Counted from the stretch's first letter, positions 34,439 through 60,570 are shown. The stretch: 64,000 nucleotides of DNA from Acidovorax delafieldii (GCA_002377855.1 DFQQ01000017.1:298-64297), one strand, 5' to 3'. A program made the numbers and translations. Notes: generated from the letters alone by a model not told the origin.

Positions 34439-34439
34439 A
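34394..34439 (+). repeat. attL core (tRNA-Thr 3' half)
   Basis: ttcgtaatgagaaggtcgggtgttcgattcatctctccggcaccaa is identical to 63769-63814. Confidence 0.9.
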
Positions 34440-37377: not shown

Positions 37378-38511
37378 GGCTTCCGCCCATGAGGCAAGGT
37401 GGCCGTTTCTCCCATGTCGTTCAAGCGGAAGGCGAGACTCTAACGCCTGATACATCCGCTGTGCATGAGCTACCCGACGTTTGAGCATTGACCGTCGTTC
37501 ATCCAAGCTCATCGCACGCAACTCGTTAACGTGAGCCTGCATGTTGAGGAAATAGTGCTTGTAAAGCGCAGGTTGGTTAAACGTAGGCTCCACCGCCTGT
37601 GATAGCGCGTTCTCAGCCCACTCAGTGGGGTGATATACCTGTCGCCATATTTCCGGCGCTAGTGTCCGAATGCGTTGGGCATCTTCAAACTGAACCCAGT
37701 TCAAAAGTCCAGCCAGATATATACGCGCTTTGGGCCCTCGTACAGCACCGTCGGATTCAACAAACTTGTCTTCCGAGAAGATGCGCGTGTTCTCAAATGC
37801 GCCCATCGTGATGTTGGGATCACCGATGGCAGAGTAAAGCAGGCCTTCTGTGTTCGTGTAGCCAATCGTCAGTTGTAGTCCGGTCCCCATCACCTCCCTG
37901 AAAAACCGCAAGGTCTCCCTCAAAAAGTCAGCGTCTTGTACCTGTTTGGTGTCTCGCTCAAACTCATACATGAGATAGAGCTCGTCCACTTGGTGGAAAT
38001 GAGTAATCCAATCAAGGAGCATCCTACGCCAGCTGGCATGCCTAATCATGCTTGCCTTGACAGCGAGCGACAGGCATAGCGGTCTGTTGCCAGCAACGGC
38101 AAGAAATGGGTTAACCGAGAACTCCTCTTGCATCTGAAAGTACTCGGGATACATCTCCTTCAGGAAGCGGGTCGGAACTACGATCTTGCGAAAGCCCTGG
38201 TCGATCTGGAAATCCACACAGGCCTGCGCGACTTGGGACGAGTGTTCAGCAAATGTCCCGGTTTGAAAGCCCCCTGATGCCTGCTCAGGAAAAAAAGGAT
38301 AAGACAGCAGCTTTCGCTTGCGGGAATTCGGCAGATAGAACTGAGGGTCGAAAAGCGACGCGGCCCGCGTCGCAGGAGCGAGCTTTTCGATTGTCGGCAG
38401 CGCTTGGTGAAGTGGGCTCAGTACAAGTCCGTCTCCGCACCGCTCGCTAAGAAAAGACTCAATGTTCCAGTTCGCGTTATGTCCGACCTGATGGAGCAGT
38501 CCAAGCGGCAT
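37363..38511 (-). CDS. hypothetical protein (382 aa), downstream partner of the Ser/Thr kinase
   Basis: ATG at 38511, 6 nt after a perfect AGGAGG and 14 nt after the kinase stop. No motif recognised. The alternating hydrophobic-strand/helix pattern (FDPQFYLP, IVVPTRF, LSLAVKA, LYLMYEF, LTIGYTN, ITMGAFEN, RIYLAGL) suggests an alpha/beta fold. Confidence 0.6.
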   Translation of the reverse strand: MPLGLLHQVGHNANWNIESFLSERCGDGLVLSPLHQALPTIEKLAPATRAASLFDPQFYLPNSRKRKLLSYPFFPEQASGGFQTGTFAEHSSQVAQACVDFQIDQGFRKIVVPTRFLKEMYPEYFQMQEEFSVNPFLAVAGNRPLCLSLAVKASMIRHASWRRMLLDWITHFHQVDELYLMYEFERDTKQVQDADFLRETLRFFREVMGTGLQLTIGYTNTEGLLYSAIGDPNITMGAFENTRIFSEDKFVESDGAVRGPKARIYLAGLLNWVQFEDAQRIRTLAPEIWRQVYHPTEWAENALSQAVEPTFNQPALYKHYFLNMQAHVNELRAMSLDERRSMLKRRVAHAQRMYQALESRLPLERHGRNGHLASWAEALETF

Positions 38512-38525
38512 GCCTTTCCTCCTAA

Positions 38526-39530
38526 TTAATGGTTCTGGTTGAGGCCGCAAAGTGCCTCAAGTTGCTCAACAAAAATGTTAGGCGTGCGTTGCCGCTCAAA
38601 TTGCGCCTTCTTCATGGCTCTCTCTACGAAATCGGAGAAGGACTGCGAGACTTGCACGAGTTCAGCTAACGGCTTGGGATCGTGTTTTAGAGTCGCGATC
38701 TGAACATCTAACTGGTCCATGTCGTTATCCCAATGGAATGGATGGATACCCGACGCCAGAAGGTACATCACCACACCAATTGCAAAGAAATCCGTTTTGA
38801 AACAGATGAGCGCGCGTTCGTCCCTAAACTGCTCTGGAGCAGCATAGCCCGGGGTTAGGGGGGCAACGAAGCCGGTTTGCGTAAGTCCTTTGGCGCCTGT
38901 CTCACGGACCACGCCTAGGTCGATGACAACCACCTCCCCGTTTGGCCGAACAAGGATGTTCGGCGGTTTGATGTCGCGGTGCACAAACCGTTGTGGATGA
39001 ACCCACAGTGGCATCAATGCGTTTGCAACTCCCAGGGCGAGCGTAGCGATACGCTTTTCATCGCCGCAGTAATGCTGCCAAATGTCCTCAAGCGGGTTCC
39101 CTTCGATGAATTCTTCGATGGTCACATAGAGCCGCTCCGCAAGCGGCTCGTCGGTTTCCGGATTGGTTTTGAACAAGTTGGCGTACAGAAGCTTCGGAAA
39201 ATTGGCAGGCCTGACCGCTGCCAAGATGTCAACTTCAGCCTGAAGGCGAGCAATAGTGTTGGTGTCTGCACCAGACACCACCTTGACGACGACGTTGCCC
39301 CATGACTCCCAGCCCCATAGGAATGGGCTGTCATCTGGATCGTCAATATCCAAAACCTCAAGACTGGCGACAGCCTCCGCTGCTCTGCGCATATCCTCAG
39401 GAATCAAGGAATCTTGAAATCTCGCCAAGTACACAACACGCTGCCCGGAGGGTGCAAGGGCACGGTCGATGATTAGACTCGGCATGCAAACGCGCAACTC
39501 GTTTCTTAGACGCACTGAATCCGATGGCAA
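38526..39530 (-). CDS. Hanks-type serine/threonine protein kinase (stand-alone, cytoplasmic)
   Basis: Beta3 Lys in VVVKVV, alphaC Glu in LQAEVDIL, catalytic loop HRDIKPPNILV, DLG in place of DFG, and YAAPEQF. The Gly-rich loop is degenerate. The TTG at 39530 follows GGGAGGG; the ATG at 39485 is an alternative start. Confidence 0.85.
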   Translation of the reverse strand: MPSDSVRLRNELRVCMPSLIIDRALAPSGQRVVYLARFQDSLIPEDMRRAAEAVASLEVLDIDDPDDSPFLWGWESWGNVVVKVVSGADTNTIARLQAEVDILAAVRPANFPKLLYANLFKTNPETDEPLAERLYVTIEEFIEGNPLEDIWQHYCGDEKRIATLALGVANALMPLWVHPQRFVHRDIKPPNILVRPNGEVVVIDLGVVRETGAKGLTQTGFVAPLTPGYAAPEQFRDERALICFKTDFFAIGVVMYLLASGIHPFHWDNDMDQLDVQIATLKHDPKPLAELVQVSQSFSDFVERAMKKAQFERQRTPNIFVEQLEALCGLNQNH

Positions 39531-39706
39531 TGGAGCCCTCCCTAGCCTTGATCGTTTATCGTCGCCCCGGCGGATAGCCCGAAGCTACGTTACGAAAGAT
39601 AACAGACAAGCCGCATTGGTGGCTATTAAACAAGTGCCGAGCTGACCGCTGATACCACCGAAAATGCGACGGTCATGATGATTGGTGGGTGTAAGAAATT
39701 GATCCA

Positions 39707-40708
39707 TCACAGCAAACTCGGAATCTTCCTCCGCGCGACAGGGCGGATGTACTTGGCCAAGGTCACGTCAGACTTGTGCCCAGTCTGCTCTCGTATCTGC
39801 CACGGCTGCAGTCCCTTCTCCGCTGCGCTTGTGCAATAGCCAGCCCTCAAGCTATGGCCGCTGACTTTCTTCGCGTCCCCGCCAACACGCTCCACAGACG
39901 CCTTCACCACTAGCGCCACGGACTGCGCGGACAAACCCAGCCGTGCAACGCGGTCATGGCGGCTGACGGCACGAAACACAAACCCCTCATTGATCCCCGA
40001 AACTTCCAGCCAACGCGCGAGGGCTTGGACTGGACAACGCTCTCCACTGGCATGCGGGATGAACACCGTACGACCATGGCCTTCTTGATCGGTCTTGCTA
40101 GATGGCAAGAAAATCTCCACCCCATTGGCCAGATAGGTCAGATGCTCCACTTGTACCGACACAAGCTCAGACCTGCGCATGGCTGAAGCAAAGCCAACGA
40201 GCAGCAGTGCACGATCACGCGCTGCTTTGACTGGCTTCTTCTGCTGGTCGATCATGACCAGCGCCGCCAGCAGATCATCTTTGATCATTGGCTGAACTTG
40301 CCGCTGCTTGGTGCCAAGCGTTCGGCGAATGCCTTGCATGACGCGCTTCACCGTCTCACTCCGGGCCGGAGATTCCATAGATTTTTCGAGATGAGCCTTG
40401 TGGATCGCGGTCACCCGTCGCTCCAAGGTCGCTACCGACAATTTTTCCGCGCACCGGGCCAGGTACTCGGCAAGAGCCGCCGGGCTGGCCGGAACACTCC
40501 CGCCACTGGCAAAAAAATGCTTCAAATCAGAGGCATATGCACGCTTCGTAGCCGCTGACTGACTGGCCGCGATGAACAGCTCGGCGGTGGCCGAAAAACC
40601 GCTCAGAACGCCCTCTGGCGGCATTTGCAGTGTGCGGTTGGACGTGGTGGTGGTGCGAGCAGACAAAGCTGCGCCAGCGCCCTCCTGCGGAGTGCGAATT
40701 TTCTTCAT
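39707..40708 (-). CDS. second tyrosine recombinase / site-specific integrase
   Basis: ATG at 40708 (MKKIRTP...). N-terminal SAM-like region TKRAYASDLKHF. Catalytic motifs MRRSEL (Arg), HSLRAGYCTS (H-x-x-R) and LAKYIR (Tyr). Confidence 0.85.
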   Translation of the reverse strand: MKKIRTPQEGAGAALSARTTTTSNRTLQMPPEGVLSGFSATAELFIAASQSAATKRAYASDLKHFFASGGSVPASPAALAEYLARCAEKLSVATLERRVTAIHKAHLEKSMESPARSETVKRVMQGIRRTLGTKQRQVQPMIKDDLLAALVMIDQQKKPVKAARDRALLLVGFASAMRRSELVSVQVEHLTYLANGVEIFLPSSKTDQEGHGRTVFIPHASGERCPVQALARWLEVSGINEGFVFRAVSRHDRVARLGLSAQSVALVVKASVERVGGDAKKVSGHSLRAGYCTSAAEKGLQPWQIREQTGHKSDVTLAKYIRPVARRKIPSLL

Positions 40709-40740
40709 GGTGAGTCCTATGGACGGGTTGGAAAAACAAT

Positions 40741-40770
40741 AAAAAACGGCCCGCAAATGGGGCCGTTTTG
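40741..40770. terminator. bidirectional hairpin terminator between the helicase operon and the recombinase
   Basis: A6 run, then ACGGCCC-gcaaatg-GGGCCGT, then T4. This reads as a stem plus T-run on both strands. Confidence 0.6.
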
Positions 40771-41122
40771 GTGGTCATCTGGCAGTCGATAACTGTGTCT
40801 TATCACTACCTTGGACTGGAGAAAAAATATCCCTACGATATATAAATTGCAAACAAAGAGCCAGGCACTCCGAATTTATTATCACAGAGACCGATGTAAC
40901 TCTTCGATTGGTTAAAATATTACCCTAACAAAACTCGTTAACGCTCACGAAGTTGTCATTCTTCATAATTTCAAATAAAAGCGGGACATAAAATTAACGA
41001 TAAGGCCTGCTTTAAATATCGTTACAGCAAATATGGCCGGATTATCTCATAAAAACCCAGTCTGCCAATCGCGGAAATTTATTTCAAACCAATAAATATA
41101 AAAACGTCAAGCTCTACTCGTA

Positions 41123-43900
41123 TCATTTTCCTTGACACAAAATTTCAACATAACCGATGAGCTCTGCCGAGTAGCTACCATCGCCATTCGCAGTTCCTTT
41201 ATGCTTTAGCTCCCGCTGCAACGTGGGCTCGACGGCGCGCGCGAACATCCCCAACCTCTGCTCTGCCGAAAACTTCGGCAAGGCCACCGGTGCCTGCAAG
41301 TAGCTCTCGCACTTGCGTTCAATGGCAGGCGCGCGCGTACCGTCTTCCTTGACGGCGATGGGCTGCACGACGAGGCGCCGGTCTCCACTCTTGCCGGATG
41401 TCTCAACCATCCAGATGGACAGCAGCACAGGTTCATCGACATCGGCCAGCACCGCCAAACCCACATCTTCGGGCGGCACGCTGCGCCAGCGCCCAAGCTC
41501 CTCCTGCACCAACGGGTGATCCAGACCCATCAGCTCAAGGGAATCGTTGCCGGTGGCCGTCTCGCGGTTCAAGGTGAACCGCGCGCGGCGGGCACCATCG
41601 ACGTTCACCAAGTCATAGGTTTCGTCGTCCACCTTGACTAGCCGCTGCTGCCGATCCGCCACGGCCGCAGACATGAACCGCACCAGGCGATCCAAGCTCG
41701 ACGACACGTCAGAGAAAGGCTTGTAGTCGTCAAGGCTGAATCCTTCGAGGTCTTGGAAGAGTTCAAACACCACCTGCCGCGCCTCGCGTGAGTTGGAAAG
41801 CGCCGCCTCCAGCTCAACTTGCGTCCGCTTCAATTCGGGGTCCGACAACGCCTCCTGATACAGCCGGTCATAGTTCAACCGCTCCGACAGCTGCCCCAGA
41901 ATCTGCGCGCGCAGGTCTTCGGCAACGTTGCCCTGGTCATCGACCTTGCCGACCGTGCGAGCAATCTCGGTCAGCTTTTCATCCAGCAGCATGAAGATGC
42001 GGCCTTCGATGGTGTCTGACAGCACAAGGTTGTAGACCTGCGCGGTGTGGTTCTGCCCGTAACGGTGGATACGACCAATGCGCTGCTCCACATCCATTGG
42101 GTTCCACGGCAGGTCGAAGTTGAACAGGATGCGCGCGAACTGAAGGTTGATACCTTCTCGCCCAGCCGCCGTGCACACCAAGACGCGCGGGCCATCCTTC
42201 TGCCGGAAGCGCCGTTCTGCCGCCACCTTGGCACCATGGTCACCGCCGCGCAGCACCACCACACCCTGGCCTGGGAAGGTCTGGTCAATCTCGCGGGCGA
42301 TCAAGTCCACCGTGCCGAGGTAGGTAGCGAACACCACAATCTTTTCGCTCGGGTCTTGCCGCCACAAGGTGCCCAAGCCATCCAACAGCTTCTGCGCCTT
42401 CGTCTCGCGCTGCTGCGGGAATATCTTGAGCAGGTCTCCTATGCGTAACCGCTCTTCGGGCAAGTGCAGTTCAACGACCGCAGATGCGGCCTCCTCGGCG
42501 TGCGCTGCCGAATACTCGCTGCCATACGGGTCCGACGCCAGCTCAAGCGCCTCCTCGTCCAGCTTCTTGACCAGCCGGTACTTCAGGTCAGCGATGACTC
42601 GGTCCACCTCACTGCGGCCAATCGGATCGCGCGCCAAGCCGAACTCGTCGTGGATCAGCTCTCTGGCTTCGTCTGTCAGCCTCTCCCGGCCTTCAATGTC
42701 CAGGTCTTTGTCACGCAGCAAGGCCTCGTGCAAGGTCAGCATCAGCAGTCGTCGCTTCAACGTGCGCTTGACGGCCGCAAAGCTCGATGCAGCAATCTTC
42801 TGGAAGATCGCCATCAGGAATCCGAGCGCCTGCCCTTTACTGCCCTGGCGCCGCGCCAGGTTGAAACCATCTTCAAGGTACTCGCGCAGCTTTTCGTAGA
42901 ACAGCCGCTCCTCCGCACACATCAGGAAGGATTCGGTGTGAACCCACCGCCGCGCGAACAGCGGTGAGCCATCGGGTTGGCATGCGTCCGCCTTGGTGCG
43001 GCGGAACATCACCGTGTTCAGGCGGTGCCGGTTTTCCAGCATCTCTTCCGGGCTGCCGAACAGCGTCGGGTTGAGCAACTGCGCCAGCATCCAGAACTGG
43101 AAGTGATTACCTTGGTGCGGTGTGGCCGACAACAGCATCAGGTCACGCGAATGGTCCTTCAGCGCCTCGGCCAGCTTGTAGTTCTCGGTCTTGCGTACCT
43201 TGCCGCCGTTGCGGTACGCGGTCAGATGGTGGGCTTCATCGAACACCACCAAGTCCCAACGCGGTGCATCGAGCAGCCGCTTGATACGCGTGGGGCGCTT
43301 CAGGGTGTCAATGCTGGCGATCAGGCGGTCATGCTTGGCAAACGCATTGGTCTTGCGGTCGGTGATATCACCCTCAGAGCCGAACACCTCGAAGTCAAGG
43401 TTGAACACCTCGTTCAATTCGCGGTGCCAGTTGTGCACCAGACCGGCAGGCACAACCATCAAAGCGCGGTTCAGCTCGCCTCGGCTGGCCAGCTCGCGCA
43501 AGATCAGCGCGGTCTCAATGGTCTTGCCTAGGCCCACCTCGTCGGCGATGAGATAGCGCCGGGGAGATGCGGTGGCAATCCGGTGAGTCAACACCACCTG
43601 ATGCGGCAGCAGGTCGATCTTGGCGGAGGTCAGCGCCGATGCGCTCTCCATGACCGGCAGCGCATGCGCCTCGTAGGACAGCCATGCCTTGCGCGCGCGA
43701 TCCTCGCCGCCATCGACGGCACGCAAGATGCGCTCGGTGCGTGACAGCTGGCGGCGCACCGCCGCGACAGGAACGCGGCGCTCGCCGATGCTGAAGAACG
43801 CCCGCAGGTATCCGTCACGGGCGGGGTCGAGAACGACGCCAGAGCCAAACTCGTGATGGCTGATCCGCTCGCCGGGTTGAAACTGAAGCTCCTTATCCAC
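41123..43900 (-). CDS. SNF2-family (COG0553-type) helicase
   Basis: 925 aa with a GTG start. Motif I DEVGLGKT, motif II DEAHHL, SATP, and motif VI QRIGRIHRYGQ. Last gene of the six-gene operon. Confidence 0.9.
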   Translation of the reverse strand: MDKELQFQPGERISHHEFGSGVVLDPARDGYLRAFFSIGERRVPVAAVRRQLSRTERILRAVDGGEDRARKAWLSYEAHALPVMESASALTSAKIDLLPHQVVLTHRIATASPRRYLIADEVGLGKTIETALILRELASRGELNRALMVVPAGLVHNWHRELNEVFNLDFEVFGSEGDITDRKTNAFAKHDRLIASIDTLKRPTRIKRLLDAPRWDLVVFDEAHHLTAYRNGGKVRKTENYKLAEALKDHSRDLMLLSATPHQGNHFQFWMLAQLLNPTLFGSPEEMLENRHRLNTVMFRRTKADACQPDGSPLFARRWVHTESFLMCAEERLFYEKLREYLEDGFNLARRQGSKGQALGFLMAIFQKIAASSFAAVKRTLKRRLLMLTLHEALLRDKDLDIEGRERLTDEARELIHDEFGLARDPIGRSEVDRVIADLKYRLVKKLDEEALELASDPYGSEYSAAHAEEAASAVVELHLPEERLRIGDLLKIFPQQRETKAQKLLDGLGTLWRQDPSEKIVVFATYLGTVDLIAREIDQTFPGQGVVVLRGGDHGAKVAAERRFRQKDGPRVLVCTAAGREGINLQFARILFNFDLPWNPMDVEQRIGRIHRYGQNHTAQVYNLVLSDTIEGRIFMLLDEKLTEIARTVGKVDDQGNVAEDLRAQILGQLSERLNYDRLYQEALSDPELKRTQVELEAALSNSREARQVVFELFQDLEGFSLDDYKPFSDVSSSLDRLVRFMSAAVADRQQRLVKVDDETYDLVNVDGARRARFTLNRETATGNDSLELMGLDHPLVQEELGRWRSVPPEDVGLAVLADVDEPVLLSIWMVETSGKSGDRRLVVQPIAVKEDGTRAPAIERKCESYLQAPVALPKFSAEQRLGMFARAVEPTLQRELKHKGTANGDGSYSAELIGYVEILCQGK

Positions 43901-43909
43901 GCGCAGACC

Positions 43910-44410
43910 TCATGTGATCCGCAGGTGGAAAAGACCCGCAGCCTTGGCCCCTTCGCGCAGCAAGATTTCTTGCGGGTACTCGTTGGCCTCGCCCCAAAGG
44001 ATGCGGCCGAAGGCCAACAGGCTTTCACTGTGGGGCGCAGCACAGCGCCACTCGATGGAATCAGTAGCCGGGTTGAGCTTAATGCGGCCTTGACCTGCTG
44101 GCAGCCAGAAAATCAGCGCCGCCTCGCCCTCGTAATAGGCTTGGAATGAGAGGATGGCGTCCTTGATGGCATCGCCCAACCAGGCTTCCGCATCTTCCGG
44201 CGTCAGCAGATCAAGACTGGCCTCCAGCCCAGCCACCACCACCGTGTTGTTGCCATTGCTCGGCAGGTCGTCAGGCCAATTGCCAACCGCCTGCAAAAAC
44301 TGCCGCAGGCTCCAGACTTGCCCAGCCTCGCAAACTTGGTTGCGGGCCTCTTCGTCCCACACCCAACTAGTGCCCCGCCGTTGCCAGACGGTATCGAGGG
44401 TTTGCTTCAT
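43910..44410 (-). CDS. small conserved-position ORF (166 aa) between methyltransferase and helicase
   Basis: The ATG at 44410 forms an ATGA overlap with the methyltransferase stop. It occupies the slot that I recall a DUF3780-type small protein filling in DUF499/DUF1156/helicase loci; this is unverified. Confidence 0.55.
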   Translation of the reverse strand: MKQTLDTVWQRRGTSWVWDEEARNQVCEAGQVWSLRQFLQAVGNWPDDLPSNGNNTVVVAGLEASLDLLTPEDAEAWLGDAIKDAILSFQAYYEGEAALIFWLPAGQGRIKLNPATDSIEWRCAAPHSESLLAFGRILWGEANEYPQEILLREGAKAAGLFHLRIT

Positions 44411-47400
44411 ACCTCGTACTCCTCGAACAGCGAAGTCTGTTGCGGCATGGCCGTCTGCGTCGCAGCCCAAGCGTTGTAGATGGACACCGCACGCGAGGCC
44501 GCATTGCGATTTTCCTGATCGGGACCGTGCCGATGCAGCCACTCCAGCAAGGGCTTCAAGGCCACGTGCGGCTTGAAGTTTTCGTTCTTCAGCGTGTCAG
44601 CCGCATTGATGCCACTGCCGTCGAAGCAGGCACCAACCAGCACCAGTGCCTGATCCAGATCGGAGGTCAGCCGACGCTTGTGCTTGCCAGACCACTCACG
44701 AGCGAAGTCCAGCGGCTTCACGCGCGTGAAAACCTTGCTCTTCTCAGAACACCATCCGCGCTGCTCGAATTCATCGGGCGTCGTGATGGAACCCTTCAGG
44801 AACTTCTGCAGCTGGTCGCGCTTCATCTCTGTGGCACTGCCGAAGGTACGAAGAAACTGGCGCGTGATCGGCTCGGCGTTGACCGGCGGCGGCTCCTTAC
44901 CCTTGTCAGCATCCTCGTCGATGAGCTGATTGATACCGATCAACGCCTCCTTGACGGAGATCGTGCGTCCTTCGTCAACGTAGACCTTGCCGTAGTGCCG
45001 AGAGAAGTACTCCAACGCCTTGCCGCGCCGGATCACCTGAATGTCCGCCGCTGGCAGACCTTCCTTCGCATGGTTTTCGAGCATGGCCTGTAGCTGGCGC
45101 ACATCAGCCATTACCTCACGGCGCATGCGACCCCAGCTAACCGGCTTGGGCTCCTCTGTGCGCTTGCGACAGACGTGGATGACGTCGTACTCGATTTTTT
45201 GCGCACCGAATTCAGCGTTGTCACCTTTAGTTTCGTCAGATCGAATTGGGTAAGTCGCTTCTAGGTAGTAGCCCGCATCGAACAGGGACTCAAGCACGGC
45301 CACCCACGGCTCATCCTCACTATGGTGAAAGGTGAAGGCGAGGATGCCGCTTGGCTTCAAAAGGCGATGCGCCTCGCGCCAGCATTGCGTTAACAGCCTT
45401 TGATAGAAACCGTTTGAGTCTTCTGGCTCGCGAAAGCTGTTAGCAACGGCTTCCAGCGACTTTGGGGTGTATTCCGCCTCGAAAATGTCAGGGTACTTGC
45501 CTTTAAGTGCCAGACGCAGCCAGACATAAAAAAAGTCGGCAAGCTCGGAATATTGCAAAAGGTCGCCGAACGGCGGATCAGTGATGACTAAGTCTAGGCT
45601 TGCTGTTTCAAGCTCGTGAAGATCGGTAGATGAGCCTTGACGAACATCCACATTCAATACTGGATCGCCCGGCTTGACCTTCTCACTTTTCCCACTCATC
45701 CTTTCAGCCAGAGCTGGGTCTTGGCGGCTAAGACTTTCTACGCTGACAACTTCCCAAGGATCAATTGCCCATTCTCGACCTTCGAGAACTCCCTCTGAGC
45801 TGGACGCCCAGTTACCACGACCCAGGTCAGGGAATACGCAATTCTCAACCACCGTTAACTTCGGGTGGTAGTTACTGTTCGAGAACATCGGCTCTGGCGT
45901 GTCTCGCTGTGGATTCCAAAAACTAAACAAGCACTGGTTGCGCAAATATTGCTGAAAAGCACCTAGAACGTACTCGCGCGTGGCCCAGTCATAGTCTCCT
46001 ATATTGACGATTGCCTTAAGCAACTGCGCATGCACCAAAAGCTGGCGGGCGCTAAACATGTCAGACCATTTCTTGTAGCCATGACCGTTGGCTATCAAAT
46101 CCTTAACCACGGCACGCAGGCTTGGTGGAATGTCTGATTGTGGCCAATAGTCTTTGAGATCGGCCTCCTTACGTACTTCCCATTCAGCTAGGGCTGCGTC
46201 GTACTGCTTGGCATGCGTGATATCGAACGCCGCGAAGAAGCGGCCACTATAGGGCTTTCCTGACGTATCGCGCTTTGGAGCGTAGCCCTGAACCGCATAG
46301 GCGCCAAAAGGCGCAGTTTTTTCTGTTGGTCGCAATGCTGAGATGATGTCCTGAGTGGTACCGCATTGCGCACAAGTAAATTTTCCATTGCCAGCCTTGT
46401 TGGCGCGATCTGTCGGAAAGGTGGTTTTCGTTTCAGGGCACGTCACTTCTTCCGGCAATTTGCCGCGCACTTCCAGCAATCGAATTTTCGACGCGCGCTC
46501 ATGATCCCAGCGCGCTGTCGTCGCAACATCATCCTGCGCCGACCCACCATATGGCTGGTTATTTGAATCCTGCTTGGGCGAACCGACCAGCCACTGTGGA
46601 TGCACCAGAAGGCTCAACTCGACCTTCTTGTTCGCACCTTTGCCGAGTTTGATTTGGCCCCGGTCACCAACAATAACCAATCCATCTTTAGGGTGGGTAT
46701 GGGCGGCGGCGTTATGTGTGCAGTGCGGACAGGTTACGCCCTGCGCAGGATCAAGTACCGCATAGGGCTGTTCCGAGGACACAACAAACAAAGGCACATC
46801 GGGCGCCATACGCGCGGCCTCAGCTTCAATATGAAATTTAGCACCACAGTTGCCGCAGGAGTGTTCCCAGTGCTTGACAGTGATTGTCTTCACGGCGATT
46901 ACTGGACTGCTCATGATCGGTGTACGGTGGCCGCAGCCCGTCACTTGACACGGGCCATGCTTAGCCCAGAAGGTGTAGATGACTTCCGGACCTTCGTAGC
47001 GGTATTCCTTCCTCTGCTCACGCGGGATGGTCAGCGGATCGAAGTCCGCAGGCATCACCTTTTTTGTCAGGAGATGTGTCCACGTGCCCTTTTCCCCTTC
47101 TGGACCGTCGCAGTAGTAATACGGCATGATCTGAGGCTTGACCTCCGCCTCGATGTCAGCGAGCAGGCGCTTCACCTCGTCCAGATCAACATTCGCCAGC
47201 TCTTGTTTGACCACGAACCACGCAACCGGGTTCAGATCATTGCCGACCATCTGCATCCCAAGGCGTGAGCCTTCCACCAGCGTAGTGCCACCGCCCATGA
47301 AGATGTCGGCCACCTTCAGATGCTTGAAAGCACCCTTTTTCTGGTGGTTGGCGTAATAGTTGTCCCACACCAGCTTGGCGGCGTGCGACTTGTCTTCCGG

Positions 47401-47664
47401 CGCCTTAGTCGCAGCAGCAATCAGCATCGAGCGGAAGACGCTGGAGCGGCGCCGCGCCCACCACTTGGACATTTGGTAGATCGGCTTTCCCGCGTTACCC
47501 TCAATGATTGCCACCTGATTGACAGGCAGGATCGGGAAATCCACTTCCAAACAAGTCTTGGGGCGATCAGGATCGTTGAAGTCAACGGTTTCAAGCGCGA
47601 CAGCCTTGCCGGCACCAACAGCCTTTGCGACTTCCTGGGCGAGTAGTTCTTTTTTGGTGGCCAT
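44407..47664 (-). CDS. DUF1156-type (COG1743-like) split adenine-specific DNA methyltransferase with Zn-ribbon inserts
   Basis: 1085 aa. N-terminal MSKWWARRRS, AdoMet motif FMGGGTTLVEG, then about 560 aa later motif IV ITDPPFGD followed by YSELADFFYVWLR. CxxC pairs (CGNC, CPHC, CAQC) lie in the insert. Confidence 0.85.
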   Translation of the reverse strand: MATKKELLAQEVAKAVGAGKAVALETVDFNDPDRPKTCLEVDFPILPVNQVAIIEGNAGKPIYQMSKWWARRRSSVFRSMLIAAATKAPEDKSHAAKLVWDNYYANHQKKGAFKHLKVADIFMGGGTTLVEGSRLGMQMVGNDLNPVAWFVVKQELANVDLDEVKRLLADIEAEVKPQIMPYYYCDGPEGEKGTWTHLLTKKVMPADFDPLTIPREQRKEYRYEGPEVIYTFWAKHGPCQVTGCGHRTPIMSSPVIAVKTITVKHWEHSCGNCGAKFHIEAEAARMAPDVPLFVVSSEQPYAVLDPAQGVTCPHCTHNAAAHTHPKDGLVIVGDRGQIKLGKGANKKVELSLLVHPQWLVGSPKQDSNNQPYGGSAQDDVATTARWDHERASKIRLLEVRGKLPEEVTCPETKTTFPTDRANKAGNGKFTCAQCGTTQDIISALRPTEKTAPFGAYAVQGYAPKRDTSGKPYSGRFFAAFDITHAKQYDAALAEWEVRKEADLKDYWPQSDIPPSLRAVVKDLIANGHGYKKWSDMFSARQLLVHAQLLKAIVNIGDYDWATREYVLGAFQQYLRNQCLFSFWNPQRDTPEPMFSNSNYHPKLTVVENCVFPDLGRGNWASSSEGVLEGREWAIDPWEVVSVESLSRQDPALAERMSGKSEKVKPGDPVLNVDVRQGSSTDLHELETASLDLVITDPPFGDLLQYSELADFFYVWLRLALKGKYPDIFEAEYTPKSLEAVANSFREPEDSNGFYQRLLTQCWREAHRLLKPSGILAFTFHHSEDEPWVAVLESLFDAGYYLEATYPIRSDETKGDNAEFGAQKIEYDVIHVCRKRTEEPKPVSWGRMRREVMADVRQLQAMLENHAKEGLPAADIQVIRRGKALEYFSRHYGKVYVDEGRTISVKEALIGINQLIDEDADKGKEPPPVNAEPITRQFLRTFGSATEMKRDQLQKFLKGSITTPDEFEQRGWCSEKSKVFTRVKPLDFAREWSGKHKRRLTSDLDQALVLVGACFDGSGINAADTLKNENFKPHVALKPLLEWLHRHGPDQENRNAASRAVSIYNAWAATQTAMPQQTSLFEEYEV

Positions 47665-47668
47665 CTTA

Positions 47669-48589
47669 TTATTTGCGTGTCGTCAACATCATCTCAACTC
47701 CGTAGAGCCTGCGTAACACCCTAGCTAAGCCTCTCAATTTGTGCATCAGCGGGTTTGCAAGCGCAGCATCCGACTTGCTTAGGCTTGCCTGGAAGTAAGC
47801 ATAGACACGGGCGTACTGATCGTCAGAATCTTGATTCCCAACGATACTCCTGAGCATGCTTTCGATGTACGCGTCAATATTTTCATTTGTCTTGCTGCTT
47901 GAAGAAAAAAGCTCCTCAACTTGGCCCTGTATGAGCCGCAGCAAATCGACAGACTCCGCCTTCACAGGATCGCTATGCAAGCTAACTTCATGAAACGAAT
48001 TGAAGTAGAACTTATGATCTTCCGGTGGATCCGATACGTCCATTTTCGGAGGGATACAAATGAGGCCCTCAAAATATGGAACTGAAGGGTAATCAAGGAG
48101 TAGCCCGTGCCGGAAAGTCAGGCGAGAATTTACCCACGCTTGGTCATATAAGGGGTCACCGCCGGACCTCAATCGCTTTGAATCAATAAAAGTCGGTGCG
48201 ACATAGAACACCTTCTCACCAGAATTTTGAAGGTCAACCATGAAGCTATGCTGCGATTTAGGTGCCTTCGCGGACTTCGCTCGAAGCGCAAAGTGAAACA
48301 ATCCGGCATCATCATCAAACGCCCATCCTTTGCGACGCATATAAGCTGCAGGTTGAGAAGACCAAGGGCGCCCAGTGAAGTCGGGATATTTGTATTGGAA
48401 ATACAAGGGTACCGCTTGCACTACGGCTGCATCCCAACCACGAGTAGCCTCCGCTCCAGGAGAAATAGGAACGATCTCTACTTTCCTATCAGGCCCTGTT
48501 AGCTGCCGAAAGATAGAAACAATGTAGTCATGAATGGATTGTTCGATGACAGGGGCATCGGACGGGGATGTCCACGGAGCCTTCACCAT
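47669..48589 (-). CDS. hypothetical protein with PD-(D/E)xK-like signature (306 aa)
   Basis: The ATG at 48589 overlaps the upstream stop by 7 nt. GWDAAVVQAVPLYFQYKYPD has a D-x12-Q-x-K pattern. Visibly more AT-rich than the flanking genes. The longer ORF to 48937 overlaps the PglZ-like gene and was rejected. Confidence 0.6.
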   Translation of the reverse strand: MVKAPWTSPSDAPVIEQSIHDYIVSIFRQLTGPDRKVEIVPISPGAEATRGWDAAVVQAVPLYFQYKYPDFTGRPWSSQPAAYMRRKGWAFDDDAGLFHFALRAKSAKAPKSQHSFMVDLQNSGEKVFYVAPTFIDSKRLRSGGDPLYDQAWVNSRLTFRHGLLLDYPSVPYFEGLICIPPKMDVSDPPEDHKFYFNSFHEVSLHSDPVKAESVDLLRLIQGQVEELFSSSSKTNENIDAYIESMLRSIVGNQDSDDQYARVYAYFQASLSKSDAALANPLMHKLRGLARVLRRLYGVEMMLTTRK

Positions 48590-49599
48590 TTCACTCCCCC
48601 TGCTACCGGGTAAGAAATTTCGACAAAGGGTGACAGCACCTCCAGCAGCGAAAGGCCGCCATGGGTCAGCGTTGGGTAGCCTCCCTGGCTCTTCCACTTC
48701 CTGCGCCCCAACGCCAGCAAATGTGCGCCATGCGGGCTGTCCAATTGCAGAGCCACGGGCGGCACAAACGGGCCTGCCTCGCCAGTGCCCACGACGCTGC
48801 GGCCGCTTGAAAAGGTCTTCTTGAGGTGCTGGCCAACATCGCCTTCGGCGTCGGGGAAGTAGCCCGTGGCAGCGTAGCCATGGTCGGACGTGATGACCAG
48901 ACGGCGACCGGTTGCGAGGCGCTCGACGAAAGACCAAAAGTCATCGCTGGTGAGCTGATCGGCGGCATCCTTGGTCAGCGTATCCAGACCTTGACCGGCG
49001 ACTGCTGCATCGTGAATCTTGCTGTCTGGCCAGTGGTGCCAGAACACCCAATTGGGCGCACCGTTGACCAATCCTTCGCAGTCCTTCCACGGCATGTCCA
49101 GGCTTTCGGTCTGCGCGGGCTGAAGACGATGCGCGAGGCCACCACCATTGTTCTGAAGCTGGCTGCGGCGGCCAAACCCAAGGGCGCGAGCAAACTCGTT
49201 GGTCTCGCCAGGGATTTCCGAGGCGTTGGCCGAGACTTCGTGCAAATTGAACCCGCGCTCTTTGGCACCTTGCAACAGCCAGGGCAATTCGCGCAGTGAC
49301 AGGCCGTCCAGAATCAGCACGGCTTTGGCGCTGTACGGCTCCGCCCACCAGCGCGCGAGACGGTCCGAAGTGCGCTCAACGGAATCGCCGAAGCTGCTCC
49401 ACAAGTCCCAGCCGCTGGCAGACAGGAAATTGTCCAAGGCGCCGATCTCTCGGTCGCGTTTGATGACTTCGCTCGGGGCGTTGCCAACGGCCAAGGGCTT
49501 GGAGGCAATCTCCGTGGCGCTCTTGACGATGACGCTCCAGGCATCAGCAGCGGAACCCTTGGTCAGTTCCTTCAGGATTTCAGGATGGAGGGCCATCAC
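48583..49599 (-). CDS. short PglZ-like / alkaline-phosphatase-superfamily protein (338 aa)
   Basis: VLILDGLSLRE (metal Asp), IPGETNEF (candidate Thr nucleophile), ITSDHGY and THGGLSLLEVLSPF match the PglZ/AP core. The start (GTG 49599 or ATG 49596) overlaps the upstream TGA. Confidence 0.7.
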   Translation of the reverse strand: MMALHPEILKELTKGSAADAWSVIVKSATEIASKPLAVGNAPSEVIKRDREIGALDNFLSASGWDLWSSFGDSVERTSDRLARWWAEPYSAKAVLILDGLSLRELPWLLQGAKERGFNLHEVSANASEIPGETNEFARALGFGRRSQLQNNGGGLAHRLQPAQTESLDMPWKDCEGLVNGAPNWVFWHHWPDSKIHDAAVAGQGLDTLTKDAADQLTSDDFWSFVERLATGRRLVITSDHGYAATGYFPDAEGDVGQHLKKTFSSGRSVVGTGEAGPFVPPVALQLDSPHGAHLLALGRRKWKSQGGYPTLTHGGLSLLEVLSPFVEISYPVAGGVKW

Positions 49600-52349
49600 T
49601 TGTCCTCCTTCTCAAGGTTCAGCTCGAACGTCATGCCATCGGGCAGCTTCTTCAGCAGTTCCTTGAGCTGGGCGCCAGTAGCGGCAGACACCTTGATGGA
49701 AACCTCGGCAACCTGCGTCGCCGGGCCGATGCCCCAGCCTTCCAGCTTTCCAATCAGATTCAGCGGAGAGGTGGGCGGGGTGTGCAGCGGAATGCGCGGG
49801 GTGCCGCTGGCTGCGGAACCACCGAAGATGCCACCGCCAGTACTGGCCGGAGGCACAGACTGTCCGCCCGGTGTCGGCTCGTTCACCCCAGGAGGTGCGA
49901 GAGGATTGGTGCCACCACCGAACAGGCCCCCGCCAGTATTTGGCGTGCCGGGGGTGCCAGTGGGTGCTGTCGGCGTGGTGCCGCCGGTGGCAGGCACCGC
50001 AGAGGGTTCAAGCAGGAAGACTTCGTCGAGCTGACGACCGGTATACGAGAGTTTGGGACGCAAGCGCCGCCATGCGGTGTCTTCATCCTCACCGGGATTG
50101 GTTTGCAGCCATTCCATTTGGCGCAGGTTGATGACGATCTTTCCGCGCGCGCACAGGCGAAGGATGCGTTCCTTCATCGAGGTTTCGCCGAGCCAAGGAA
50201 TGCAGTCCTGGCCCGCAGGCCGAGGCTCCTGCAACTCACGCAGCAGCTTGCCCACCGCCGAGTTCTCGGAGGCGGCTTCGAGCACCAAATCCTCAAAGTC
50301 CTCGGGTACGAAAAGATCGTTGGTCAACGCCTCTTCGATGCCTTCGGGAATCTGCGCGCCTTGCTTCTTCAGGCTTTCCACGCTAAAGCGGCATTGAGCG
50401 GGGTCAGCGAAATTCCATCGCTGCACCACAGCGAACCGGTCGAACCGCTTCTTGAGGATGTCGCGCAGGGCACCCTGGTATTCGGTGTGCAGCTTCTTGT
50501 ACTCGGGGCCTTGATTGCTCCATTCCTGCGCCTTCATTTCGGCACGCGCGAGGATCAGCAGGTCTCGGTCTTGGAAAGCGTTGGTCGAGCCCGCACGCGG
50601 CAACAGGAAGCGGATGGTGTTGCGGCGCTTTTGCAGATGATCTTTGAGCCAGCGGCCCAGGCGTGCGTCGATGTTGTCCGGCTCTTCTGGCAGCACCAGG
50701 ATGGGCAAGCGGTCGTCCCAGCGTTCCGGCTGTTCAGACTCATCCAAGGTGGACCAAGGGTCCGTCTGCCATGACTTGGGCAAAGCAATGACGCGGAAGG
50801 TCTTCGCCACCTCGTCGGTGCCACCAATCACATAGCGAATCTGCTTGGCCAGTTGTGCCTGGTCGGAGCCATCAGCAAAGAGCTTGTCATTGCGAGCACA
50901 GGCCATCAGCTTGGCGCGCGGGTTCTCCTCCTCGCGGAACACAAGCCGGTTGCCGTCCTGATGGATGTTGAAGCTGTTCTCAACAATCGTCGCCAGCTCC
51001 ACATTGAAGGCGTTGTCATCGACGGCCGTGCTGCGCGTGATGTCAACTTGCAAGGTCTGCGGCTCCGCACCGGCAAGGTTACCGACAGCGATGGAGCGCA
51101 GCCACAAGGCACCCACGATCTCTTGCAAGTGGGGTGCCAAAGTTGCGTGCTCGCTGACCGCCTCGGTCACCGAGATGATGTTCTGCTGCGCCTTGGCCCG
51201 CAGCGTGCGGTGATGCTCGTTGGACACCGAGTCCAGCAGCGCGCCAATGCCCGACGCGTCGTCATCCAGACGGAAGTCAGCGGCTGTGAGCACCGGCGCG
51301 GCCTCGCCACGGCTCTTGTAGAGGTTCGCAAGGATGCGAATCATGTCGCGCGTTTCCTGCGCGTCCGTGGCGATGAGCACTTGCTCTTCCAGCAGGCGAA
51401 GCAGGTGCGGTGCGTAGGGCCATGATTCGGTGAATTCCTGGCGCTTGCGTTCCTGCTCGGCGGACGGCACGTCCAGCAGCCGGAAATACTCGGCCACATG
51501 CTTGCCGACCAAGGCTTCGATGCTGGCCGGTGCAATCTGAAGGCGGTTGTCGAAGAGGCGGTGCAGCAGCATGCGGCGCCGGTCTTGCTGAATGCGTTCA
51601 GCGTTTCCGCCTGCCTTGAAGTCGATGGCCACCGGGTTGACGCGGTGCACCTGTTGGTAGGCGTCGCTGCCGCCGTTGCGCACCGAGATCACCAGCACCA
51701 ACAGGTCCGGGCGCTCCTTGGCAATCTCCGACAGGATTTGGATGAAGTTGAAGGCCCAGTTCTTCCACGGGTACTGCTTGGTGTTCGTCAGGCCGTCGAA
51801 CCATGTCTGGAACTCGTCCAACAGCAGCATCGTGGGGGTGTGTTCAAGCAGTTCGAGAATCAGCTTGTCAGACGGGATGTCGGTCTTCGCCGCACCCATG
51901 CCCTCCCACTTGCCCTTGATGTATGTGCCGTGGGGGTGCCGCTCCAGCAACAAGTCCCAAAGAAACTTGTACCGCTGACGATGCAGGCTCTCACCAATCA
52001 CCTGCATGCCGCTGCGAAGGCCGATCTTGGCGATCTGCGGATCACCCAATGTCGTGGACCAGGAATTCAGCCAAGCACCCGTCGAGGCGGCATCGTTGAC
52101 CGCGTGATACAGCGCGGCCATCAAGTGAGACTTACCAAGCCCACGCTCACCGATCACCACGACCGGGCGCCCTTGGTCCGGGCCTACAGCCTCGATGCCC
52201 TTCAGCAGGTCATGCGTGGGGTAGGTAATCTCTAGGAACGACTGCGCGGCGATCTGTGTCGCGCCGGTGTTGGTGTCGTTCGACAGTTCAATTGCGGTTC
52301 CCTTGAGACGCTTGCCCCGAAATTCCTCGCGTAGCGTTAATCCCAGCAT
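49596..52349 (-). CDS. DUF499-type P-loop ATPase (BrxC/PglY-like)
   Basis: 917 aa. FLEITYPT, Walker A GERGLGKSH and Walker B LLLDEF. A 77-aa Gly/Pro/Thr low-complexity linker precedes a 55-aa C-terminal domain. First gene of the operon, with RBS GGGAGAG. Confidence 0.8.
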   Translation of the reverse strand: MLGLTLREEFRGKRLKGTAIELSNDTNTGATQIAAQSFLEITYPTHDLLKGIEAVGPDQGRPVVVIGERGLGKSHLMAALYHAVNDAASTGAWLNSWSTTLGDPQIAKIGLRSGMQVIGESLHRQRYKFLWDLLLERHPHGTYIKGKWEGMGAAKTDIPSDKLILELLEHTPTMLLLDEFQTWFDGLTNTKQYPWKNWAFNFIQILSEIAKERPDLLVLVISVRNGGSDAYQQVHRVNPVAIDFKAGGNAERIQQDRRRMLLHRLFDNRLQIAPASIEALVGKHVAEYFRLLDVPSAEQERKRQEFTESWPYAPHLLRLLEEQVLIATDAQETRDMIRILANLYKSRGEAAPVLTAADFRLDDDASGIGALLDSVSNEHHRTLRAKAQQNIISVTEAVSEHATLAPHLQEIVGALWLRSIAVGNLAGAEPQTLQVDITRSTAVDDNAFNVELATIVENSFNIHQDGNRLVFREEENPRAKLMACARNDKLFADGSDQAQLAKQIRYVIGGTDEVAKTFRVIALPKSWQTDPWSTLDESEQPERWDDRLPILVLPEEPDNIDARLGRWLKDHLQKRRNTIRFLLPRAGSTNAFQDRDLLILARAEMKAQEWSNQGPEYKKLHTEYQGALRDILKKRFDRFAVVQRWNFADPAQCRFSVESLKKQGAQIPEGIEEALTNDLFVPEDFEDLVLEAASENSAVGKLLRELQEPRPAGQDCIPWLGETSMKERILRLCARGKIVINLRQMEWLQTNPGEDEDTAWRRLRPKLSYTGRQLDEVFLLEPSAVPATGGTTPTAPTGTPGTPNTGGGLFGGGTNPLAPPGVNEPTPGGQSVPPASTGGGIFGGSAASGTPRIPLHTPPTSPLNLIGKLEGWGIGPATQVAEVSIKVSAATGAQLKELLKKLPDGMTFELNLEKEDK

Positions 52350-52936
52350 TACTTAGCTCTCCCGTTCTGATCATGGCGTTGCTAAATGTATATCGCCTCA
52401 AAACGGTCAGCAGCGACATCTCGGCTGCAGCAAGAAGTAGAGCTCCATTTTCGGAGCATCTTTCGAGAGCTGTGGGCGTTCTTTCGCAAGCCAGTCCGGC
52501 ACGCACCGTTGGTGCTAGATAAATTCACAGCTATGCAAACTTCTCACACATTTCAATGACAACACCAAATTTGTCGGATCACTACCTTCAAGTGATTGCG
52601 GATTCTCAACAGACTGCACCACTTATCTATTTATACGAATAATGGTATATAATAACATAAATTAATTACTTTTGTGTATTATTTTGGCTTTTTTTATGCC
52701 ATTGCGATGCGTTCCGGCGACTGTTTTCGATTTGGCTTGCTGAGCGGCTACACAACAGCATCTGAACGGAGTGATCAGCCGAATTTAGATCACCTCGCTG
52801 CGCCAGCTTTTGCCATGCAATAGCACCTTTTCACCCGGCTTGAGCGGCGCCGTGAGCCCGCTTTGGGTTATCAAAAACCTGACTTGCGGAACCCGCCGAA
52901 TGGGCCAACTGGTGTGCTTTCACCCTGGAGCAACCC

Positions 52937-60397: not shown

Positions 60398-60570
60398 GGT
60401 GTTGTTGTGGCGTGCTTTCACTCTCATTTCTGAGCAATTAAGTTCACACCTGTCCAATAGTGATAGTCATCTCCATAGCTCTACTTAGCCAATGCCACCG
60501 TCTGCCACTGCGTTGATGTGGTCGCGCAGAGGTGTGCAGCGGTGCATTGGCTAGTGGATGCACATATGCA

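Follow-up and report, generated by a model that had tools for sequence, protein, structure and literature searches.

A probable Type-3 DUF499-centred BREX-related operon with an embedded nuclease-like gene on a tRNA-Thr island of Acidovorax delafieldii

The DNA analyzed here, referred to as the window, is a stretch of 64,000 nucleotides from Acidovorax delafieldii (GCA_002377855.1 DFQQ01000017.1:298-64297) that includes six tightly packed open reading frames (ORFs) between positions 41123 and 52349. We propose, with a probability of about 0.8, that this locus is a complete and apparently intact modification-based defence operon of Type 3 among the DUF499-centred bacteriophage exclusion (BREX)-related (BR) systems (BR-3), located on a 29.4-kb tRNA-Thr island, and that an unrelated, single-gene, nuclease-like ORF (ORF3) is embedded at its cargo slot. 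Type 1 BR is the system known as Hma, and Type 2 BR is Gao_RL, now called MANTIS. The three types of DUF499-centred systems were defined by Rakesh & Krishnan (NAR 2026) in a study that was computational only (PMC12839542). Type-3 BR was found in 569 taxa and consists of a DUF499 ATPase, an N6-methyltransferase, a nuclease-less BrxHII-like helicase and a standalone active PglZ, together with a small separate inactive STAND NTPase in 82% of the taxa; the methyltransferases of a subset have two four-cysteine zinc fingers in the target-recognition insert (PMC12839542). The Type-3 BR subtype (computational, 2026) and the embedding phenomenon (Payne et al. 2024) are already known. What is added here is this member of the subtype and the ORF3 family as a candidate.

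The six ORFs occupy 11.2 kb of the minus strand and code for proteins of 917, 337/338, 306, 1085, 166 and 925 amino acids (Table 1). ORF1 and ORF2 overlap by 1 nt if the ATG is the start codon of ORF2 (TGATG) or by 4 nt if it is the GTG (GTGA). The remaining junctions are a 7-nt overlap between ORF2 and ORF3, a 4-nt gap between ORF3 and ORF4, an ATGA overlap between ORF4 and ORF5 and a 9-nt gap between ORF5 and ORF6. An initial annotation of the window had reported the six same-strand ORFs with their coordinates and junctions, an upstream leader, a downstream hairpin and a set of peptide motifs. All of these were confirmed in the sequence, and each quoted motif was found at a single position in the six translated ORFs. 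The gene vocabulary that it had read from those motifs (a DUF499 ATPase, a PglZ core, a DUF1156 methyltransferase, an SNF2 helicase and a nuclease-like extra gene) proved to be right.

Related operons were then compared. The survey comprised 83 loci, of which 80 came from one-genome-per-species contigs; Methylococcus capsulatus Bath was also included. In every contig that was long enough, the order ATPase, PglZ, methyltransferase, 166-amino acid gene, helicase was invariant. Since the same gene order recurs in 83 loci, the arrangement of the six ORFs is not a product of chance. The ATPases and helicases are about 80-99% identical among the surveyed loci. Colinear loci were present in Beta-, Alpha- and Gammaproteobacteria as well as in contigs of metagenome-assembled genomes labelled Planctomycetes, Verrucomicrobia, Acidobacteria and Synechococcus. 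The five genes keep order and size alike in these loci and on the 45 plasmids that were found to carry the system. Klebsiella is the source of 28 of these plasmids, and 34 of the 45 were predicted to be conjugative; plasmid pEFER (CU928144) was not in the plasmid collection. The Prokaryotic Genome Annotation Pipeline (PGAP) describes the genes of the plasmid copies as DUF499, hypothetical, DUF1156, hypothetical and SNF2-related. A compact version, 25% identical, was observed in the haloarchaeal plasmids pAArc1-01 and pHLAC01 (L089 and L090 in our numbering of loci), where a DUF499 gene is followed by genes for a 296-amino acid 'alkaline phosphatase', an 878-amino acid methyltransferase, a 132-amino acid protein and a Dam-like methylase. 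The PLSDB gene table, itself incomplete, has no entry for a helicase in these two loci.

The predicted product of ORF1 is a DUF499 AAA+ (ORC/Cdc6-type) ATPase, the counterpart of BrxC, MtsA and HmaC. It matched Pfam DUF499 with 28.9 bits (cut-off, 23) and also AAA_16, and its orthologues are annotated as DUF499 proteins. Among the PADLOC models the match to HmaC was weak (E 0.0015), and no BrxC model was matched. The motifs FLEITYPT, GERGLGKSH and LLLDEF are found at residues 38, 67 and 175, with the Walker A lysine at K73 and the Walker B residues at D178/E179. A low-complexity linker rich in P, G and T (residues 776-850; 49800-50020), which includes two GG(L/I)FGG repeats, precedes a small conserved C-terminal domain. 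This linker is the sole poorly conserved part of the protein, with an identity of 0.44 compared with about 0.9 elsewhere.

The product of ORF2 is predicted to be a bare PglZ catalytic domain of 337 amino acids, compared with 865 in the PglZ of the E. coli HS BREX-1 locus (NC_009800), which was used as the comparison sequence. The initial annotation had put the PglZ component at roughly half the usual size, and these lengths agree with that. The assignment is based on motif collinearity, invariant residues, an hhalign alignment, the Pfam matches of archaeal homologues and a UniProt name. In the numbering of the 338-amino acid form that starts at the GTG, the motifs LILDGLSLRE, PGET, TSDHGY and THGGLSLLE are at residues 95, 130, 237 and 312; the ATG at 49596 is the likely start because the homologues begin with 'MAL...'. 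Four alkaline-phosphatase-type motifs are collinear and similarly spaced in ORF2 and E. coli HS PglZ (ILDGLSLRE/ISDALRYE, IPGET/LPSYT, ITSDHGY/VTADHGF and THGGLSLLEV/VHGGTMLQEV), and residues D97, T132, D238/H239 and H312 are invariant in 30 homologues. The hhalign program aligned residues 140-328 with residues 549-736 of E. coli HS PglZ at an E value of 0.01. The NCBIfam model BREX_PglZ_3 gave an E value of 0.0011 over the C-terminal 35 amino acids only (17.3 bits, cut-off 250). Haloarchaeal homologues with 25% identity matched Pfam PglZ and Phosphodiest at E values of about 0.02, and one of them is called 'alkaline phosphatase' by PGAP. The 81%-identical Methylococcus protein MCA2685 has the UniProt name 'PglZ domain-containing'. 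ORF2 itself had no Pfam match at E<=1 and no PADLOC match, and sequence and profile searches of the PDB returned spurious matches to designed proteins only. More than 2659 homologues of ORF2 were found, most of them about 80% identical across distant taxa.

ORF4 codes for a predicted N6-adenine methyltransferase, the counterpart of PglXI, HmaB and MtsC, with a variable target-recognition insert of about 450 amino acids between motifs I and IV. PADLOC matches were HmaB (E 3e-39) and PglXI (E 3e-21), and the DUF1156_MTase model was also matched. In Pfam, N6_N4_Mtase was matched with 32.8 bits and DUF1156 with 16.7 bits, below the cut-off of 24; the NCBIfam model DUF1156_antiphage reached 83.7 bits with a cut-off of 1000. 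KWWARRRS is at residue 67, FMGGGTT (motif I, which binds S-adenosylmethionine) at 122 and ITDPPFGD at 694, so that the catalytic DPPF of motif IV (residues 696-699) lies about 570 residues after motif I. The conservation profile among relatives has a variable block at residues 276-700, and the insert carries two conserved four-cysteine clusters (C239/244/270/273 and C312/315/431/434). ORF6 codes for a predicted Swi2/Snf2 helicase without a nuclease domain, a counterpart of BrxHII and HmaA that also resembles DrmD. Its PADLOC matches were BrxHI/BrxHII (E 3.5e-103) and HmaA (E 1.4e-91). The latter covers profile positions 93-651 of 1176 only, and because the match ends at position 651 the C-terminal restriction endonuclease is taken to be missing. 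Pfam matches were SNF2-rel_dom, Helicase_C and ResIII, with no nuclease family among them. NCBIfam equivalogs remained far below their cut-offs, with 302 bits of 610 for the DrmD-type model and 156 of 1100 for PLD_Helicase/phospholipD_antiphage, the latter in the helicase C-lobe only. The motifs DEVGLGKT (residue 120, Walker A K126), DEAHHL (residue 221, DEAH box 221-224) and QRIGRIHRYGQ (motif VI, residue 606) are accompanied by an N-terminal Tudor-like motif, GERISHHEFGSGVV. The nearest solved structure is RapA.

The small ORF5 protein belongs to the conserved core. It has 902 homologues with 62 invariant columns, and in the surveyed loci its gene is always located between those for the methyltransferase and the helicase. 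In position and predicted size the protein corresponds to the 'inactive STAND' (BrxB/BrxF-like) component found in Type-3 BR systems. No match to ORF5 was found in Pfam, PADLOC or NCBIfam. Comparison by hhalign with E. coli BrxB and with 15 BrxB sequences from the supplement of PMC12839542 gave E values of 0.31-0.35, with 0.35 for the set of 15. An AlphaFold2 (AF2) model built with 30 homologues was of low confidence (predicted local distance difference test, pLDDT, 43). A Foldseek search with this poor model returned nothing significant, and its order of strands and helices (β3, helices, β4, three strands) is only loosely like the published BrxB topology.

The gene that does not belong to this core is ORF3, which fills exactly the spacer between the PglZ and methyltransferase genes. 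In operons free of inserts, 18 nt separate the stop codon of PglZ from the ATG of the methyltransferase. Junction inserts were counted in 75 loci by scanning one representative per size class and classing the others by their ORF size pattern. The spacer was filled in 35 of the 75, and translational coupling was kept. The inserts were SIR2-HerA (11 loci), IetAS (12 loci) and Ppl (3 loci), each with a representative that had a nearly full-length PADLOC match; a cassette of 253-, 95- and about 120-amino acid ORFs (3 loci; L035:11014-12401), whose 253-amino acid protein had no Pfam or PADLOC match; small single genes of 158, 197 and 132 amino acids (3 loci; L024, L050 and L064); and ORF3-like genes (3 loci), of which the representative, in L059, matched nothing. 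A fourth ORF3-like gene follows SIR2-HerA in L080. Other junctions are occupied as well. A 195-amino acid gene without Pfam or PADLOC match (L005:14221-14808) follows the methyltransferase gene in four loci, with other small ORFs at this junction in two more, and a two-gene insert lies between the 166-amino acid gene and the helicase gene in nine loci, where the scanned representative (L009) was HEC-01-like (AAA_21+DUF4276). The 195-amino acid gene, the cassette of three ORFs and the three small single genes are candidate defence genes.

Comparison with the nearest relatives showed how such inserts change. Loci L004-L006 are 94-96% identical to the window at the nucleotide level over the ATPase and PglZ genes and about 89-93% identical from the distal methyltransferase or the 166-amino acid gene through the helicase gene. 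Homology with these three loci breaks at the 3′ end of the PglZ gene (48619-48629) and resumes at the ATG of the methyltransferase (47664). The last nine residues of ORF2 were rewritten by the ORF3 insertion. In the same place L004 has SIR2-HerA and L006 has IetAS, and L005 has no insert there and has the 195-amino acid gene after the methyltransferase. The target-recognition block of the methyltransferase differs from that of the window in L004 and L005 and is 96% identical in L006. Close relatives thus often have different embedded cassettes and different specificity modules. In one locus, L076, the PglZ and methyltransferase genes are separated by a 73-nt spacer (10985-11075), and its sequence is identical to that at the 3′ end of the SIR2-HerA cassette. 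This deletion scar indicates that cassettes are lost as well as gained.

ORF3 has a GC content of 0.49, compared with about 0.61 in the neighbouring genes. Genes of the ORF3 superfamily were found in the slot of 4 of the 75 loci from the genome collection, in the window and in two loci fetched through ORF3 homologues (embedded copies: L049, L059, L066, L080, L092 and L093), and standalone copies were found on other mobile elements (L084-L087, L094 and L095). Because ORF3 is absent from about 94% of the orthologous operons and stands alone elsewhere, we regard it as an embedded accessory and not a sixth or core subunit. The protein has 36 close homologues. A profile search of 1.84 billion representatives returned 203 sequences at E<=1e-3, of which 78 reached E<=1e-10; almost all of these proteins are about 300 amino acids long. 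Residues E16, E47, D53, Q65, K67, R86, Q113, Y129, H192 and H205 are invariant in an alignment of 60 sequences with about 20% identity, and the QYK motif at residue 65 follows D53 by twelve residues. The pattern E…D…QxK on an α-β-β-β core is the signature of PD-(D/E)xK nucleases, in the Mrr-like QxK variant. An AF2 model (pLDDT 76.7; predicted template modelling score, pTM, 0.79) has an order of secondary structure elements that is compatible with an αβββαβ PD-(D/E)xK core, and a further domain of about 170 amino acids has invariant residues of its own. Members of the family had no match in Pfam (37 members and 10 distant relatives tested), PADLOC v2, NCBIfam or PHROGs, and no HEC or PDC model of PADLOC-DB v2.0.0 was matched. 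Foldseek comparison of the model with the PDB and BFVD found nothing at E<=0.001, and the 60-sequence profile had no match in the PDB.

From these features, ORF3 is most likely an autonomous one-gene defence nuclease residing in the BR-3 cargo slot. A broader proposal, which we put forward only tentatively, is that the whole family (about 200 clusters at 50% identity; about 300 amino acids; invariant E-E-D-QxK plus R/Q/Y/H/H; no match in Pfam, NCBIfam, PADLOC v2, PHROGs, the PDB or BFVD) is an unrecognised nuclease that acts against phages or plasmids, autonomously and from a single gene, and that has repeatedly entered the slot between the PglZ and methyltransferase genes; in this proposal the 18-nt junction may function as a dedicated docking site with translational coupling for the exchange of whole second-line defence systems. 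ORF3 could also be something other than a nuclease or a defence effector, namely a regulator, an anti-defence gene or selfish cargo that uses an insertion hotspot. The databases searched gave no significant fold or family match, and no function has been assigned to roughly half or more of the genes that are embedded in systems of this kind, both of which speak for this alternative. We consider it rather unlikely.

The mobility of the operon raises another possibility, that its primary role is not anti-phage and that, as an epigenetic or addiction module, it keeps mobile elements stable through methylation-dependent post-segregational killing or the exclusion of competing plasmids. The operon is carried on an integrative island here, on regions resembling integrative and conjugative elements in relatives and on the 34 plasmids predicted to be conjugative. 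The surveyed loci share 72-97% identity across distant taxa, which implies rapid horizontal spread, and MANTIS restricts plasmids too. However, such a role and a role in defence are compatible, BR-3 operons have known defence systems embedded in them, and both Hma and MANTIS protect against phages. As an alternative to defence it is improbable.

The initial annotation had suggested that the locus may be a distinct hybrid of modification and restriction. Taken further, the six genes would form one undescribed six-component system, with the 306-amino acid protein as its dedicated restriction nuclease. ORF3 is translationally coupled on both sides and has the nuclease-like E-D-QxK signature, and the core helicase has no nuclease. 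Nevertheless, the slot holds a member of the ORF3 superfamily in 4 of the 75 loci, in addition to the window and the two loci found through ORF3 homologues, and is otherwise empty or holds complete unrelated systems; the GC content of ORF3 is foreign, and its relatives are found alone in contexts other than BR. The core minus ORF3 is the described Type-3 BR system, which it matches component by component and in size (PMC12839542). The idea of an undescribed hybrid was thus not sustained, and we consider the six-component version very improbable. Five of the six genes have named counterparts of similar size and order in a defined subtype, and ORF3 does not. The observation of an extra gene in the middle of the operon, made in the same annotation, was correct. 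Its view that the locus is neither a canonical BREX type 3 nor an Hma system held as well, given DUF499 in place of BrxC, the HmaA match that runs to position 651 of 1176 and the PglZ of 337 amino acids. Least credible is the reading of the locus as a canonical system in degenerate or variant form, be it BREX type 3 minus BrxA or Hma (Type-1 BR): the best PADLOC matches are indeed BrxHI/BrxHII, HmaA, HmaB and PglXI and the vocabulary is common to BREX type 3, but the ATPase is DUF499 with no BrxC/DUF6079 match, PglZ is a standalone protein of 337 amino acids against 865 with 17.3 bits against 250 for BREX_PglZ_3, no BrxA family is among the Pfam, PADLOC and NCBIfam matches of the six ORFs, the HmaA match stops at 651 of 1176 and that of HmaC has an E value of 0.0015, and an arrangement kept in hundreds of genomes is therefore not a decay product.

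Several points weigh against the assignment of the locus to a Type-3 BR defence operon with an embedded nuclease. Experimental work on Type-3 BR was not found in the searchable literature, and therefore we infer defence, methylation and the role of PglZ alike. The exact protein family of the window was not confirmed in the list of the authors in the supplement of PMC12839542, where taxa, accessions and motifs were sought. Statistical support for ORF2 as a PglZ is weak: it comes from motif collinearity, a sub-threshold NCBIfam match, the hhalign E value of 0.01 and a UniProt name, with no significant profile match. ORF5 was not shown to be an inactive STAND/BrxB homologue by AF2, hhalign or Foldseek. 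The ORF3 model has no fold neighbour, so that the word 'nuclease' is taken from its sequence motif only. Finally, the upstream helix-turn-helix (HTH) gene of most relatives is missing here, and expression may therefore differ.

A mechanism can be proposed on the basis of homology to MANTIS (Type-2 BR) and BREX-1. Among BR systems, a mechanism has been defined for MANTIS alone: the methyltransferase is loaded onto DNA by the DUF499 ATPase together with a co-factor, asymmetric 6-bp sites are hemimethylated and a helicase-nuclease then restricts unmodified DNA (10.64898/2026.09.23.753747). Further precedents are the complexes of BrxC with PglZ-BrxB and the embedding of genes in Hma, BREX and DISARM. 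In the Type-3 BR operon of the window, the AAA+ ATPase would load the methyltransferase onto DNA, and the methyltransferase would mark self DNA by hemimethylating a short asymmetric motif that its variable insert determines. When incoming DNA is unmodified, the complex of ATPase and methyltransferase bound at the site would recruit the SNF2 translocase and also the PglZ metallo-phosphodiesterase, tethered by the 166-amino acid protein as a BrxB-like adaptor. PglZ would in this way stand in for the helicase-fused nuclease of the Type-1 and Type-2 BR systems. ORF3 would act as an independent second-layer nuclease that is co-transcribed with its host operon, and it may be a back-up that is modification-dependent or triggered by anti-defence.

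The regions that flank the operon differ from those of its relatives. Nucleotide homology with the nearest relatives begins only about 20 nt before the ATG of the ATPase gene, and the leader has one weak sigma-70-like match (52678-52649). In at least 48 related loci the start of the ATPase gene is adjoined by a gene for an 80-amino acid HTH_17 (AlpA/excisionase-like) protein (in L001, 7015-7260). No ORF like this regulator gene was found in the leader (52350-52936), and it is also missing from L004, where about 20 nt of upstream homology are left. Downstream, a 434-amino acid protein without family match overlaps and follows the helicase in about ten loci (L001:17510-18814 among them); its gene is missing from the window, where an AT-rich spacer of 366 bp (40757-41122; GC 0.374) takes its place. 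Neither repeats nor att-like sites were found in the leader and the spacer. The best sigma-70-like match of the region (47668-47697; TTGAGA-18-AATAAT, 10/12) lies inside the 3′ end of ORF3, just upstream of the ATG of the methyltransferase gene. It could be an internal promoter brought by the insert, among promoter-like sites whose number in the region (5, compared with 4.1 in shuffled sequence) is not above expectation.

The island that carries the operon extends from 34.4 to 63.8 kb between two 46-nt repeats, and at the tRNA gene the GC content falls to about 0.55 from a value of about 0.65 (Table 1). A Ser/Thr kinase gene overlaps a 395-amino acid ORF without family match, and this region (37363-40756) possibly represents a further defence module of the island. 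The two replication genes suggest that the element is able to replicate after excision, in a satellite- or plasmid-like manner. No Rfam families other than tRNA were found.

Table 1. Coordinates of the operon and of other features of the island in the window.
Feature	Position	Strand	Description
ORF1	49596-52349	-	917 aa, DUF499 AAA+ ATPase (predicted)
ORF2	48583-49596 (ATG) or 48583-49599 (GTG)	-	337/338 aa, standalone PglZ / alkaline-phosphatase-superfamily catalytic domain (predicted)
ORF3	47669-48589	-	306 aa, embedded accessory gene, candidate PD-(D/E)xK-like nuclease
ORF4	44407-47664	-	1085 aa, DUF1156-type N6-adenine DNA methyltransferase (predicted)
ORF5	43910-44410	-	166 aa, small conserved core protein
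ORF6	41123-43900	-	925 aa, Swi2/Snf2 helicase (predicted)
Upstream leader	52350-52936	-	587 bp, AT-rich, GC 0.475
Intrinsic-terminator-like hairpin	40743-40769	-	10-bp stem with 6 G-C pairs, then T-run; just upstream of the second integrase gene
attL	34394-34439	+	3′ 46 nt of tRNA-Thr(CGT) (gene 34363-34438), left island end
attR	63769-63814	+	exact 46-nt direct repeat of the tRNA-Thr 3′ end, right island end; 0 matches expected by chance
Integrase gene	34600-35733		
Ser/Thr kinase gene	38526-39530		matches PD-T4-6 and MADS mad6 models; overlaps the 395-aa ORF
Second integrase gene (tyrosine recombinase)	39707-40756		directly after the operon terminator
Replication genes	59282-61575		Phage_CRI (G2P-like) initiator; AAA_25 + HTH protein

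Type-3 BR systems are widespread (>2600 PglZ-type homologues; 45 plasmids), and the copy described here is intact and compact. These systems are the simplest natural case of a bare PglZ catalytic domain taking the place of a helicase-fused nuclease, and they therefore offer a clean test of the role of PglZ in BREX-like immunity. The near-identical relatives, which differ only in the cassette and the specificity block, amount to a natural swap experiment. The embedded 306-amino acid gene is a concrete new candidate for discovery through 'guilt-by-embedding'. Current understanding is not overturned by these results, which add one member and one candidate.

DISARM combines DrmD and a Drm methyltransferase with DrmA, DrmB, DrmC or DrmE; in the window, only a generic SNF2 likeness to DrmD was seen, and no other Drm component was among the PADLOC matches. 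MADS was considered and rejected, since its weak mad8, mad2 and mad6 matches reflect generic likeness to P-loop, methyltransferase and kinase proteins, and the kinase is located beyond an integrase gene. BREX type 3 is said to comprise BrxF, BrxC, PglXI, BrxHII, PglZ and BrxA, an arrangement attributed to Goldfarb et al. (2015). The window has in common with it a PglXI-like methyltransferase, a BrxHII-like helicase, the catalytic domain of PglZ and an AAA+ ATPase of the same clade. However, the ATPase is DUF499 and not BrxC/DUF6079, the gene order differs, and PglZ is without the N-terminal and C-terminal domains. Neither a BrxC nor a BrxA family was found among the Pfam and PADLOC matches of the six ORFs, and BrxA was not found in NCBIfam either.

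Hma stands for helicase-methylase-ATPase and was reportedly described by Payne et al. in 2021 in connection with PADLOC. Hma and the window have the three-gene backbone in common, and both host other defence systems between their genes. In contrast, the Hma helicase carries a C-terminal PD-(D/E)xK nuclease that is absent from ORF6, the window has a PglZ and a small protein that are both missing from Hma, and HmaC was barely matched (E 0.0015). MANTIS is likewise built on a homologous DUF499 AAA+ ATPase (MtsA), a DUF1156 methyltransferase (MtsC) and a superfamily 2 helicase motor, but it has a DUF3780 protein (MtsB), and a PLD nuclease is part of its helicase protein (MtsD); in the place of these the window has the standalone PglZ and the 166-amino acid protein. 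Pfam DUF3780 had no match in the operon of the window, and the PLD models matched the helicase C-lobe only.

Two further comparisons concern ORF3. Rakesh & Krishnan noted 'auxiliary/backup effectors' (PMC12839542), to which ORF3 corresponds, and defence systems embedded in Hma, BREX and DISARM have been used for discovery by 'guilt-by-embedding' (Payne et al., 10.1101/2024.01.29.577857). Like these embedded systems, ORF3 is co-oriented with the core genes, nested between them, variably present and also found outside such operons, and the SIR2-HerA, IetAS, Ppl and HEC-01 inserts of the relatives are embedded in the same way. DUF4365 is the DREN nuclease domain of the SPARDA short-Argonaute systems, a defence effector of PD-(D/E)xK type (PMC10810196, PMC12205087). 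One relative of ORF3 is named DUF4365 by UniProt, and the BFVD match with the best template modelling score, which was not significant, is a DUF4365 protein. In contrast, Pfam DUF4365 is absent from all 37 members of the ORF3 family, ORF3 has the additional domain of about 170 amino acids, and no SPARDA structure was among the listed PDB fold matches of ORF3, none of which was significant. The identity of ORF3 as DUF4365/DREN could not be supported and is a lead only.

The closest likeness is to Type-3 BR. The copy in the window differs from it by the extra 306-amino acid gene and by the absence of the upstream HTH gene common in relatives. Its core has a DUF499 ATPase above the Pfam cut-off; a standalone, single-domain PglZ with intact metal-coordinating residues and weak profile statistics; a DUF1156-type methyltransferase with two conserved four-cysteine clusters and a sub-threshold Pfam DUF1156 match; a small separate protein of 166 amino acids at the position of the inactive STAND component; and a helicase predicted to be BrxHII-like, with a Tudor-like motif and without a nuclease fusion.

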